Positions 58,862-61,659 of a stretch of DNA of 64,000 bases are shown one piece after another. The notes beneath the pieces are model-generated. The model was not told where the DNA came from and searched no databases. It saw only the letters and a program-made list of their open reading frames with translations. The stretch spans positions 5,792,001 through 5,856,000 of the forward strand of contig CM000152.2 in the NCBI GenBank assembly GCA_000004695.1, given 5' to 3'. The DNA comes from Dictyostelium discoideum. Lineage: Eukaryota. The position numbers and the translations under genes were made by a program. Within the stretch, counting starts at the first letter, position 1, and every line of letters begins with the position of its first letter.

Positions 58862-61659
58862 CTATCGAGGTGGTTTTGGTTGATTTTGTTGTTGTTGTAA
58901 TTGTAATTGTTGTTGCTGTTGTATATAATTTTCTTGTAAAATATATGGACAATTATTTTGACAATATTCATTCGTTAAAACAGTTGTTCCAATCCATTTA
59001 TAATTTTGAGTTCTAGTTTCTTCAACAGATTTTGACTTTTGAACTAAATTAATTGCTTCAAAAACATTTGCAATATCATAACATCTTTTAATTTTTGCAC
59101 TATTTCTTAATGATATATAATTATCATGAGTTTTTTCAATATTTGGATTAAAATTAAAACAAACATCATGTATTGTTAAACATTTATCAGATAAAAGTAA
59201 TTTCAAAAATTGTGAAACAGTTGTTGATAATTCTGTTTCTTTATATCTAAATTTTCTTCCACTATTAATATTATTCTGTACATTGTTATTATTATTAACA
59301 CCACCACCACTACCACCACCACCACTACTACCACCACCACTACCACCATTATAAAGATCACTCATATTTACAAGACTATATGAATTATTTACACTAACAT
59401 TTGATGATGGTGAAATTGTTGTTGTACTAGTATTATTGGTAGTTGTAGATGTTGATGTTGTTGTTTCTGATGATGTTGATGATGATGGTGATAATAAAGT
59501 TGGAGATACATTTGAAAATTGTAAAATAGGAGAATTTAATATTACACCATTTTCAGAATTTAATTTACAATTGTCACAGAAAAATTCAGAATTTTTAGTA
59601 ATGAAATTAATTTTTGAGTGAAAAGTTGATAAAGCGAAATTTAGAAATTCAGGATTATCTAAACCTAACCAAACATAATTATTACATTTATCATTTCTAA
59701 CCAATTTTGAACATTCCATAATATCTAATATTTCTTTTAATTTAAAGAAATCAACATTTAATAAACTTTCAATTAAACGTACATTAAATTTAGTTACATT
59801 ATTTGAAATTAAATGTTGAATTAGTAAAGTTGTAACCACTTTAATTTGTTTTTTTGCATCTTTTTCTTTCTTTTTAATGAATCCATTTGAACTATTTATA
59901 AATGTTGCTGTAAATTGATTATATGGTGATGGTTGTGGTAATTGAATTTGATTTTGAAATGTACTTTGTGTTGTTATTGTTGTTGTTGTTGTTATTGTTG
60001 ATGTTGATGATGTTGATGATGACGATGATGATGATGATGATGATGATGATGATGATGATGATGATGTGGTTGATGATGTTGATGTTGAAGATGATGTTGG
60101 TGATGATGGACATTGTTGATGTGGATAAATTACTTGATATTGGGATTGACTCTGTATTGGTGATGATGTATTTAATGATAATTCTTCTTCATTATAAATA
60201 TTATTATTATTATTATTATTATTATTATTATTATTATTATTATTATTATTGCTATTATTATTATTTATATTTTTAATATTACTTTCATGTAGTTTTTGAT
60301 ATTCATTTTCAAAATATCTTGTTTTCCTAATTTTCTTTTTTTTCTCTAAAATAGATTCTTGGTTACTATTTCCATTATTATTATTATTATTTTGATTATT
60401 GTAACCATATTTACTACTTGAAATTAAATATTGTTGTTGTTGTTGTTGTTGTTGTTGTTGTTGTTGTTGTTGTTGTTGTTGAGTAGGAGATAACATTATT
60501 TTATCATTTTTTAAATAACTGTTATTTTCGTTTAAAATTGTTGTTTTACTACTTTCACTATTATGTGAAAGTTGTTCAGGTTTTTCAAGTTGTTCAAAAT
60601 TAGAATTTTCTTGGTGTTGAATTTTCTTTTGGTGTTTTTGTTGATTTTCATTATTAATGTAAGGATGTTGTCGGATTATTTTATTATTATTATTATTAAT
60701 ATTATTAATATTATTAATATTATTATTAATATTATTATTAATATTATTATTATTATTATTATTATTATTGTTTATTATATTATCATTATTATTATAATTA
60801 TTATAATTATTATTATTATTAAAGTTGGGATAATTATTATTTTCATTATCATTATTCTTCTTTTTATTTTCATTATTATTTTTTTTATAGTAATAATTCT
60901 GTATATTATTATTATTATTATAGGAATTATTTATATCATTATTGCTATGATTATTTATGATGCCATTATTTGGAATATAATTTTTACCATTATTATAAAT
61001 ATTATCATCATTATTATTATTATTATTATTATTATTACTATTATTACTTCTACTACTACTATTGGAATTATAATTATTATTATTATAATTATTTTGTTTA
61101 TTAAAACTGGTATTATTACTGGTATTATTATTATTATTATTATTATTATTATTATTATTATTATTATTATTATTATTATTATTATTATTATTATTATTAT
61201 TATTATTATTATTATTATTATTAATATAATTTATATTATTATTATTAATATAATTTTTATTATTAATATAATTTTTATTATTATTATTATTATTATTATT
61301 ATTATTATTATTATTATTATTATTATTATTATTATTTGGATTATTATCGTTATTATTATAATTTGGATTATTATTATTATAATTTGGATTATTATTATTA
61401 TTATTATTATTATTATTTGGATTATTATTAGTAGTATTATTATTATTATTATTGGTATTAAATTTATTAAATATATTATTAAAAATATTATTATAAATAT
61501 TACTATAAATATTATTATTACTATAATTAATATTACTAATAAAATCTTTTTTTATTATCTCATCTTTGGTTTTGTTATTATTTTGGTTTTTTGTTGTTGA
61601 GTATGGTGATTTAATTGAAAGATCATTTTCTTCGTCATCTTCTTTATTTGTTATTAATC
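58862..61659 (-). CDS. Atypical E2F-like transcription factor with two E2F/DP-type winged-helix DNA-binding domains (E2F7/E2F8/DEL-like architecture) embedded in a very long N/Q-rich low-complexity protein of about 932 aa.
   Basis: ATG at 61659 ('MDIGLITNKEDDEENDL'); the track ORF extends further into a poly-A-encoded poly-F artifact. DBD1 is 'KKQIKVVTTLLIQHLISNNVTKFNVRLIESLLNVDFFKLKEILDIMECSKLVRNDKCNNYVWLG'. DBD2 is 'RKFRYKETELSTTVSQFLKLLLSDKCLTIHDVCFNFNPNIEKTHDNYISLRNSAKIKRCYDIANVFEAINLVQKSKSVEETRTQNYKWIG'; compare E2F7 DBD2 '...[23 protein letters not shown].....KPAFKWIG' and the E2F consensus RR.YDI.NVL....LI.K....W.G. There are massive (AAT)n tracts at 60170..60250, 60660..60800 and 60990..61430, and poly-Q at 60420..60480. 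The plus-strand poly-I/poly-M ORFs 59923..60276 and 60572..61600 are artifacts. Confidence 0.65.

Follow-up and report, generated by a model that had tools for sequence, protein, structure and literature searches.

Atypical E2Fs carry two tandem E2F_TDP winged helices (DBD1 and DBD2) on one polypeptide, as in the animal E2F7/E2F8 and plant DEL proteins. The RRxYD motif of their recognition helices is the base-contacting motif, established from the E2F4–DP2–DNA (PDB ID: 1CF7) and E2F8–DNA (PDB ID: 4YO2) structures. DNA binding by animal E2F7 needs both domains, and half-site binding is common among winged helices.

In Dictyostelia, the DELs listed by Medina et al. (2016) belong to P. pallidum and D. 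fasciculatum, with no entry for D. discoideum or D. purpureum; E2F7/8/DEL proteins are likewise not listed for D. discoideum in an earlier survey (Cao 2010), and models of its cell-cycle/differentiation network include only E2F, DP, and RblA (Strasser 2012). Forbes et al. (2019) count DDB_G0282499 among five D. discoideum E2F_TDP proteins, list it as an E2F/DP-domain gene "unique to Ddis", and in their Table S3 give it a mid-development peak and, among mature cell types, the class 'growth' (highest in growing cells). The gene described here is probably this one; because the searched literature gave no matches for DDB_G0282499 or DDB_G0282493, we infer the locus tag from tag order. DDB_G0272264 is a paralogue in D. 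discoideum. The gene is already catalogued, and the present analysis refines existing knowledge rather than reporting a discovery. As the original prediction had suggested, no characterised Dictyostelium atypical E2F was found in the literature searched.

Gene structure and regions outside the winged helices

The gene lies on D. discoideum AX4 chromosome 3, in a 64-kb stretch of DNA (the window), and consists of one uninterrupted minus-strand ORF in a single exon. Its main features are as follows.

58862..61669, minus strand: complete single-exon CDS, 935 aa plus stop
58862-58864 and 61667-61669, minus strand: stop codon and ATG, respectively (from translation and ATG context)
59885..61669, minus strand: N-terminal region, ~595 aa, mostly N-rich low complexity (from composition)
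59663..59854, minus strand: DBD1, the first winged helix, aa 606-669 (from subfamily profiles and gap-free alignment)
59732..59749, minus strand: FFKLKE, aa 641-646, start of DBD1 recognition helix 3 (from alignments A1 and A2)
59543..59662, minus strand: conserved inter-domain segment, aa 670-709 (from alignments)
59261..59542, minus strand: low-complexity linker from the inter-domain motif to DBD2, aa 710-803 (from composition)
58985..59242, minus strand: DBD2, the second winged helix, aa 810-895 (E2F_TDP, E2F7/8/DEL second-domain type)
59075..59089, minus strand: KRCYD, aa 861-865, DBD2 recognition motif (from alignments A1 and A2)
58865..58984, minus strand: C-terminal tail, aa 896-935; the short stretch TVLTNEYCQNNCPYILQENYI is conserved, poly-Q comes after it

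The predicted reading frame is real and uninterrupted, but the ATG lies at 61669-61667 and not, as first proposed, at 61659. The start, MDIG(L/S)ITNKE, is shared with the orthologues, and the gene set of GCA_054883475.1 has an identical 935-aa product. Neither the C-terminal 346 aa nor DBD2 returned anything in word-indexed protein searches; in the same collection the dictyostelid-subfamily profile gave one relative alone (P0009), and the exact protein is missing. The reading of an unannotated gene was dropped, because the product is called in GCA_054883475.1 and the collection more likely lacks low-complexity proteins. Codons AAT (282) and CAA (59) make up 36% of the 935 codons, so that the estimate of more than half of the coding length for (AAT)n/(CAA)n was too high; N and Q account for 38% of protein residues, and 63% sit inside low-entropy N/Q/S/T/G segments.

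In a Pfam search with the whole protein, E2F_TDP was the sole credible family (E 8.1e-11, 41.9 bits against a cut-off of 25.7), matching in two stretches, and neither RFX nor forkhead was found. Of the two E2F_TDP matches foreseen, only the second is significant when the domain is searched by itself (DBD2, 40.7 bits, E 2e-10); DBD1 by itself falls below the cut-off (12.1 bits, E 0.17), and the DBD1 of the orthologues gave no Pfam report at E<=0.01. At E<=10 there was no match to E2F_CC-MB (PF16421) or the DP dimerisation domain (PF08781), and a pattern scan found no DLF, LxCxE, or E2F-tail, short-motif absence being unprovable across 595 aa of low complexity. Within these searches, the proposal that the protein lacks a DP-dimerisation (coiled-coil/marked-box) or pocket-protein-binding region holds, and no transactivation region was detected. 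The E2F consensus TTTSSCGC does not occur in the 64-kb window, including the 1.4-kb upstream region, which is weakly informative as only 0.44 sites are expected by chance.

The N-terminal region is 42% Asn, with additional poly-Q and poly-S/T runs, contains no domain detected by Pfam, and aligns poorly even with that of D. firmibasis, except for the first ~70 aa. The inter-domain segment carries a motif, TFHS-x13-EFFC-x2-CK, common to DELb-type dictyostelid proteins, and forms a helix at residues 75-85 of the AlphaFold2 (AF2) model. One relative (P0003) shows a weak match to the Herpes_UL52 zinc-finger region. In the D. discoideum protein, H684, C698, and C701, perhaps together with C655, might make up a zinc site. 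The linker runs from S/T-rich to G/S-rich and N-rich sequence and differs in length and sequence between orthologues; its PDB matches are engineered (G4S)n linkers, spurious hits caused by a (GGS)n run. In the model, the C-terminal tail is helical at residues 200-209 and of low confidence beyond.

Identity and conservation of the two domains

Both peptides quoted in the original prediction were located in the protein (KEILDIMECSKLVRNDKCNNYVWLG, aa ~644-669; RCYDIANVFEAINLVQKSKSVEETRTQNYKWIG, aa 862-894), and the proposed E2F7/E2F8/DEL layout of tandem winged helices on a single chain stands. To classify the domains, subfamily profiles were built from the Cao 2010 supplement sequences, namely A1 and A2 (animal/plant atypical), E2F, and DP. 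DBD2 scores 41.8 bits on A2, 23.7 on A1, 21.1 on E2F, and 17.8 on DP, with 48.1 on profile G2, and its top genuine match by phmmer against the PDB is E2F8 (4yo2_A, residues 198-227). Pfam, PDB phmmer, the subfamily profiles, and hhalign therefore agree with its earlier assignment to the E2F7/8 DBD2 type. Helices 2 and 3 of this domain are separated by an insertion, its wing is extended, and its motif KRCYD keeps the R-x-Y-D core (R166, Y168, and D169, invariant across alignments A1 and A2), the first Arg being Lys, as in most dictyostelid DELs.

DBD1 is considerably more diverged. It scores 14.1 bits on A1, the profile of animal/plant first domains, and 3.9, 3.4, and -0.1 on E2F, A2, and DP, respectively, the E2F and DP values lying within the shuffle range. 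Against a profile of the first domains of other dictyostelids' DELs it reaches 33.6 bits (E 1.8e-12), a score attained by 0/2000 shuffles, and hhalign gave 96.6% and 61.6%. From helix 3 to the wing, 31 residues align free of gaps, with VMEC and Y.W.G in common. In the gap-free alignment anchored on the other dictyostelid homologues, FFKLKE occupies the position of RRRIYD; both Arg and the Tyr of RRxYD are replaced and Asp is changed to Glu (FKLKE), and what DBD1 retains is limited to the hydrophobic core and the wing (Y.W.G). The signature had been claimed for both segments, and it is DBD2 alone that keeps its core; the earlier matching of KEILDI to R.YDI (ILDI for IYDI) is out of register. 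The net charge of DBD1 is +4, with Lys at two of the lost motif positions. An AF2 model based on a multiple sequence alignment (MSA) gives DBD1 a pLDDT of ~96 and an H-E-H-H-E-E topology, whereas the single-sequence model is uninformative (pLDDT 40), and a PDB sequence search with DBD1 alone found no E2F chain. Its status as a winged helix is thus rescued solely by the subfamily profiles, the MSA-based model, and conservation; as judged from sequence, DBD1 is a homologue of DEL/E2F7/8 first domains that lacks the DNA-reading motif.

In the AF2 model the two domains are packed together in a manner resembling human E2F8, with E2F8 and E2F4 as the closest structural matches; this model is not independent, because it rests on an alignment of E2F7/8-type homologues and the network had already seen 4YO2. 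For each domain, the atypical profile of its own type (A1 for DBD1, A2 for DBD2) outscores the E2F1-6 profile, and the DP profile is the lowest of the four for both. Among 1.84 billion representatives searched, all 27 full-length relatives are two-domain atypical E2Fs, each having its A1-type domain first and its A2-type domain second, and single phmmer stretches cover both domains in several of them (P0001, P0003, P0004, P0005, and others). In a neighbor-joining (NJ) tree of 59 winged-helix domains over 72 columns, DBD1 groups with DEL first domains (bootstrap 85/300) and DBD2 falls near DEL second domains (75/300). The topology of the tree matches the subfamily profiles, but its bootstrap values are too weak for the argument to rest on it.

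The protein accordingly has the two tandem E2F_TDP winged helices of an atypical E2F on one polypeptide, a first domain of DBD1 subtype and a second of DBD2 subtype by profile. With two DBDs and no E2F_CC-MB match it differs from typical E2Fs (E2F1-6), and with no PF08781 match from DP (TFDP); readings as RFX/forkhead, typical E2F, or DP were rejected on the basis of Pfam, the subfamily profiles, and the structural matches. RRxYD is not present in both recognition helices (FKLKE in DBD1, KRCYD in DBD2), and its absence from DBD1 places the protein as a divergent homologue rather than a functionally canonical member. By these comparisons, the gene is the very diverged D. discoideum member of the dictyostelid DEL (E2F7/8-type, 'atypical') branch.

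Syntenic orthologues are intact in D. citrinum, D. dimigraforme, and D. firmibasis, intact ORFs being counted in four species. The DBD1 motif reads FFKLKE in D. citrinum and D. dimigraforme and FLKLKE in D. firmibasis, the change being fixed in four species. Relative to D. firmibasis, dN/dS is 0.084 for DBD1 and 0.096 for DBD2 at dS 0.6-0.9, and 0.177 for the inter-domain segment; relative to D. citrinum and D. dimigraforme, it is 0.011-0.022 at dS 0.44-0.80. These values indicate strong purifying selection on both domains, DBD1 being as constrained as DBD2; DBD1 has lost its DNA-reading residues and is nevertheless strongly conserved. The syntenic D. purpureum contig has no match to the gene, and the orthologue is not called in the D. 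firmibasis annotation.

Possible mode of action

The best overall explanation, to which we assign a probability of about 0.6, is a dictyostelid DEL-branch protein in which DBD2 is the reader and DBD1 a 'pseudo-DBD', acting independently of DP and Rb. Neither DP nor the Rb orthologue would be required; DBD2 would read a GCG-type half-site, and DBD1 would be a structural partner that fixes DBD2 in an E2F/DP-like pair geometry and may contact the DNA backbone only. Such a protein would recognise a half-site, or else a sequence unlike the symmetric CGCGCG core of TTTSSCGC, and the long N/Q-rich N-terminus is presumably an effector or interaction region.

A canonical E2F7/8/DEL repressor, in which both helices read DNA, TTTSSCGC is bound as by an intramolecular E2F/DP mimic, and cell-cycle E2F targets are repressed, would suit the two-domain architecture, the E2F8-like arrangement in the model, the R-x-Y-D kept in DBD2, the still basic DBD1, and the highest score of the probable gene in growing cells (Forbes et al. 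2019). It is nevertheless unlikely, given the fixed replacement of two Arg and Tyr in DBD1, the sub-threshold Pfam score of this domain, and the lack of an E2F consensus site in the 64-kb window; the loss of one reading head makes canonical binding less likely. Since animal E2F7 needs both domains, one reading head might be too few for any sequence-specific DNA binding, and the paired helices could instead be a protein-interaction or decoy module, for example titrating E2F/DP/RblA partners or binding chromatin non-specifically, with the N/Q region driving assembly. Constraint over whole-domain surfaces, not just the DNA-contact motif, and the large prion-like N/Q region agree with such a module, but the invariant recognition-helix R, Y, and D and the wing W of DBD2 are hard to explain without DNA reading, and winged helices commonly bind half-sites; we regard it, too, as improbable.

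Two further readings concern the identity of the sequence itself. That segment 1 is no E2F winged helix but a chance resemblance, leaving a single-DBD E2F/DP-like or other (RFX/forkhead) factor, might be suspected from its Pfam E-value, the unmatched PDB sequence search, and the poor single-sequence model; the dictyostelid first-domain profile with its shuffles, the 96.6% in hhalign, the stretches spanning both domains in several relatives, the gap-free alignment from helix 3 to the wing, and the absence of RFX/forkhead in Pfam, with E2F8 and E2F4 as top structural matches, make this very improbable. A decaying or spurious ORF, a lineage-specific relic open by chance in AT-rich repeats, would be in keeping with the extreme low complexity, the description as unique to D. 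discoideum (Forbes et al. 2019), and the missing D. purpureum match and D. firmibasis call, but is scarcely credible against the syntenic ORFs, which are intact in four species, the expression classes on record for the probable gene, and dN/dS of 0.01-0.18 at dS 0.4-1.0 across both domains and the inter-domain motif, on which the pseudogene reading was rejected. Altogether, the original prediction is confirmed in part as an observation and supported in part as an interpretation.

Returning to the reading of DBD2 as reader and DBD1 as pseudo-DBD, a wider version of it is tentative: group-4 dictyostelids may have kept a fast-evolving DEL/E2F7/8 copy, contrary to the loss implied by the surveys, with a conserved pseudo-DBD as first domain, a half-site or non-E2F motif as target, and a place in a lineage-specific arm of the RblA/E2F system. 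With this result, the "genes unique to Ddis" (Forbes et al. 2019) become connected to the "e2f-like cluster unique to groups 1 and 2", for which one fast-diverging family, rather than separate gains and losses, is the simplest reading. If the protein is a working DEL-type factor, the E2F system of D. discoideum includes a third arm, independent of Rb and easy to knock out. A conserved, recognition-dead DBD1 offers a handle on the share of each half in E2F/DP-like site choice, and, if the pseudo-DBD reading is true, a natural experiment in which an intramolecular E2F/DP mimic re-tunes its specificity. Current views are not overturned; the result is an incremental one in annotation and evolution.

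Comparison with known E2F and DEL proteins

Typical E2F–DP pairs (E2F4–DP2, 1CF7; in D. discoideum, e2f DDB_G0284129 and tfdp2 DDB_G0276799) have one DBD each, to which they add a coiled-coil/marked-box or DP domain and, in E2F, a pocket-binding tail, none of which was found here. Plant DEL1-3 (E2Fd/e/f, Arabidopsis) and rice DELs share the two-domain architecture, and it is the plant and animal sequences that make up the A1/A2 profiles best matched by the D. discoideum domains; plant DELs differ in length (350-440 aa), in having canonical RRxYD in both domains, and in a conserved C-terminal motif (...YxPxYxNQ...) absent from the D. discoideum protein.

Animal E2F7/E2F8 (4YO2, human E2F8 with DNA) are alike in the two tandem E2F_TDP winged helices, in lacking DP-dimerisation, marked-box, transactivation, and pocket-binding regions, and, in DBD2, in YDIANV, in an insertion ahead of helix 3, and in a long wing that terminates with KWIG. 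Identity to E2F8 is 17-18%, the inter-domain segments are unrelated, and in place of the base-reading RRIYD (DBD1) and RRLYD (DBD2) of the animal proteins, the D. discoideum protein has FKLKE and KRCYD. The animal proteins function in DP-independent repression of E2F targets.

The dictyostelid DELs are the top matches among the 1.84 billion representatives (E 1.3e-12 to 3.5e-09), with 24-28% identity over both domains. Nearest are the DELb-type proteins, PpalDELb (PPL_04042, Heterostelium album, UniProt D3B5V4) and Acytostelium subglobosum XP_012752839 / XP_012748781; PpalDELa, DfasDEL, XP_012759782, and XP_012753472 are more distant. Compared with these, the D. discoideum protein has lost RRxY entirely (FKLKE); its DBD2 contains an 11-aa insertion, its linker spans ~95 aa of low complexity, and its N-terminus comprises ~595 aa of N-rich sequence. 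It shares with them the domain order and the elements 'VMEC' (helix 3 of DBD1) and K/R-R-x-Y-D (DBD2), and with the DELb-type proteins the inter-domain IFHS...EFVC..CK; in the Acytostelium pair, the DBD1 motif is already partly degenerate (TRMYS).

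Gene model, composition and local gene order

An ORF scan of the window, which is sequence from D. discoideum AX4 chromosome 3, gave an uninterrupted minus-strand ORF (61762–58862), the first ATG of which is preceded directly by a run of ~53 T on the coding strand (~61683–61735). The end coordinate first proposed, 61659, was 10 nt short. The genes concerned are as follows.

58862–61669, minus strand: E2F-like gene; first ATG at 61669–61667, 935 aa plus stop
57588–58358, minus strand: SLX9-family gene of two exons (ORFs of 95 and 110 aa), directly downstream of the E2F-like gene

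The annotation of assembly GCA_054883475.1 has a single-exon gene at the place of the E2F-like gene, upstream of the SLX9, PhyH and aminotransferase genes, and its 935-aa product is identical; in locus L001, the SLX9-family gene is annotated with a product of 215 aa that carries PF15341. Two further window ORFs match exactly XP_640066 (ACC synthase) and XP_640082 (aspartate aminotransferase, Q54SF7). The divergent neighbour (plus strand, from ~63070) is separated from the E2F-like gene by ~1.4 kb of intergenic sequence, in which no TTTSSCGC site was found.

The encoded product (the window protein) is mostly of low complexity, with Asn at 291 of 935 residues and low-entropy segments holding 63% of the residues. 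AAT and CAA codons make up 36% of the CDS, and their share, put originally at more than half, was therefore overstated. Two plus-strand ORFs overlapping the gene (60572–61600, 342 aa, poly-Ile; 59923–60276, 117 aa, Met/Leu/Tyr-rich) were rejected as genes, being mirror artefacts of (AAT)n and related repeats. The 935-aa product was found in neither of two large protein libraries, with no Pfam match on record; Dictyostelium low-complexity proteins may be systematically missing from both.

Two winged-helix domains and the region between them

Pfam E2F_TDP matched the whole window protein in two stretches (E 8.1e-11), and the same scan showed no E2F_CC-MB, DP domain or other credible family, in line with the original remark that no DP-dimerisation, marked-box or pocket-binding region is obvious. 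When the segments were scanned separately (cut-off, 25.7 bits), the second (aa ~822–894; 40.7 bits, E 2e-10) passed and the first (aa ~612–669; 12.1 bits, E 0.17) failed, giving one significant match where two had been expected; the orthologues likewise have only one. In a PDB sequence search, the best real match of the second segment was the second domain of human E2F8 (4yo2_A), followed by E2F4, while no E2F chain matched the first segment. The linker GGSGGGSSGGGGSGGG run (~59300–59350, aa ~775–790) produced spurious "significant" PDB matches to engineered single-chain (G4S)n linkers, which rank above the true E2F8 match.

For subfamily assignment of the first (DBD1) and second (DBD2) winged helices, four profiles (E2F1–6, DP, atypical DBD1 and atypical DBD2) were built from the supplementary sequences of Cao et al. 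2010, and two were added from dictyostelid DELs, the window clade excluded.

Profile scores of the window domains (bits)
Dictyostelid DEL DBD1: DBD1, 33.6 (E 1.8e-12); DBD2, 18.7
Animal/plant atypical DBD1: DBD1, 14.1; DBD2, 23.7
E2F1–6: DBD1, 3.9; DBD2, 21.1
Animal/plant atypical DBD2: DBD1, 3.4; DBD2, 41.8
Dictyostelid DEL DBD2: DBD1, 2.2; DBD2, 48.1
DP: DBD1, −0.1; DBD2, 17.8

The profile ranking was the same in hhalign, and the DBD1 topology of a neighbour-joining tree agrees with the profiles, with weak bootstrap support. The second segment is thus close to E2F7/8 DBD2, as predicted, with its best real PDB match and its highest-scoring profiles both of that type.

The recognition signature claimed for both domains holds in DBD2 (K-R-C-Y-D for RRxYD), where R, Y and D are invariant across the alignments of window domains and relatives (A1 and A2) and the leading K is usual among dictyostelid DELs, but not in DBD1 (FKLKE). 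In both alignments, DBD1 is gap-free from helix 3 to the wing, anchored by a dictyostelid-specific "VMEC" and Y.W.G, and the family V-E-R-R-R-I-Y-D is replaced by V-D-F-F-K-L-K-E, without both arginines and the tyrosine of the motif. The match of ILDI to IYDI made originally was rejected as out of register with the gap-free alignment. Among other dictyostelid DELs, the DBD1 motif occurs in intermediate forms: several have RR(I/F)YE, and two Acytostelium paralogues have TRMYS. DBD2 of the window clade contains 11 inserted residues between helices 2 and 3 (FNFNPNIEKTH, aa 845–855, 59105–59137), which other dictyostelid DELs lack, whereas animal and plant second domains have an insertion at the same place.

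Between the domains, a motif (I/T)FHS-x12-13-EF(V/F)C-x2-CK (59543–59662, aa 670–709) is one that the window protein has in common with DELb-type dictyostelid proteins only; in one relative (P0003), this region weakly matches the Herpes_UL52 zinc-finger region of Pfam (E 0.0027). In DBD1 helix 3, every dictyostelid DEL has the "VMEC" Cys, whereas animals and plants have Ser. From these sequences, the motif, together with the VMEC Cys, may form a metal site.

An AlphaFold2 model of a 220-aa two-domain construct, built with a 22-sequence alignment, showed the H-E-H-H-E-E topology twice (mean pLDDT, 85.2; pTM, 0.83; pLDDT ~96 over DBD1), and its single Foldseek match in the PDB at E ≤ 1e-3 was E2F8 (4yo2_A, 184 columns). 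Although it depends on the family alignment, the predicted arrangement is compatible with an intramolecular pair like that of E2F8. Modelling DBD1 from its sequence alone gave no useful information.

Relatives, orthologues and selection

A phmmer search with the two segments joined, the linker being left out, gave 29 matches among 1.84 billion representatives, several spanning both segments in one stretch; the best were Acytostelium subglobosum XP_012752839 and XP_012748781, Heterostelium album PPL_04042 (D3B5V4) and one EukProt protein. In all 27 full-length matches, a winged helix of the first-domain type precedes one of the second-domain type; among them are proteins resembling plant DEL and animal E2F7/8, and one is named "transcription factor E2F7/8" at source. 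With DBD1 and DBD2 each scoring best on atypical profiles, the predicted E2F7/8/DEL layout is supported.

Three species have an intact orthologue at the syntenic position: D. citrinum (962 aa), D. dimigraforme (in part, within the locus covered) and D. firmibasis (808 aa, intact; L008:3244–5670 of GCA_036169595.1, CM069765.1, with no gene called in that annotation), the last being ~78% identical to the window protein in DBD1 and DBD2. Most of the N-terminal low-complexity region cannot be aligned among the orthologues. In D. purpureum, tblastn of the 11,133-bp contig L009 (GL871562.1) gave no match to either domain; the SLX9–PhyH–aminotransferase synteny is retained there, with a ComC-like gene and another encoding 124 aa in the expected place. 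The D. purpureum orthologue may have been lost, moved or too diverged.

Two alternatives are that the first domain is spurious, as its failure at the Pfam cut-off might suggest, and that the ORF is decaying. Among 2000 shuffles of DBD1, none attained either of its top scores (33.6 and 14.1 bits). By the Nei–Gojobori method, dN/dS between D. discoideum and D. firmibasis is 0.084 for DBD1 (dS 0.64), 0.177 for the inter-domain motif (dS 1.05) and 0.096 for DBD2 (dS 0.91), and both domains give 0.011–0.022 against D. citrinum and D. dimigraforme. The F(F/L)KLKE state is older than the D. firmibasis split, and DBD1 is thus constrained and no relic. Two further alternatives are fully canonical DNA binding, which would have to accommodate the altered DBD1 motif, and a decoy role apart from DNA, which would have to accommodate the invariant R, Y and D of DBD2. 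The window protein is a homologue of the DEL/E2F7/8 type, without dimerisation or pocket-binding modules; its two winged helices, predicted to pair, are both under selection, the recognition helix being intact in the second and recognition-dead in the first.

Proposed mode of action and relation to known E2F proteins

The role of RRxYD is established in the E2F4–DP2–DNA and E2F8–DNA structures. By this role, DBD2 would read a GCG-type half-site with DBD1 as a structural partner, the target would differ from the symmetric TTTSSCGC core, and DP and RblA would not be needed for the factor's action. Repression is a guess by analogy.

For D. discoideum, Cao et al. 2010 listed E2F, DP and Rb and not E2F7/8, the network of Strasser et al. 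2012 names only E2F and DP, and the set of Medina et al. 2016 has DdisE2F and DdisDP only; that set contains PpalDELa, PpalDELb (identical to PPL_04042) and DfasDEL, and no DpurDEL. Forbes et al. 2019 treated DDB_G0282499 and DDB_G0272264 as "a set of 2 genes unique to Ddis", and placed PPL_04299, PPL_04042, PPL_01634 and DFA_07980 in an e2f-like cluster confined to groups 1 and 2. The order of locus tags makes DDB_G0282499 the probable identity of the window gene, which is therefore already catalogued; Table S3 of Forbes et al. gives DDB_G0282499 a mid-development peak, neither prestalk- nor prespore-specific, with "growth" among mature cell types. Three points are apparently absent from these papers: the DEL-branch assignment, the link to the PPL_04042 type and the conserved loss of the DBD1 motif.

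Altogether, the original prediction was partly confirmed as an observation and partly supported as an interpretation. The gene, of moderate-to-low general interest, gives Dictyostelium cell-cycle research a useful lead that is easy to test, and the window protein is a divergent, new member of the known E2F7/8/DEL-type family.
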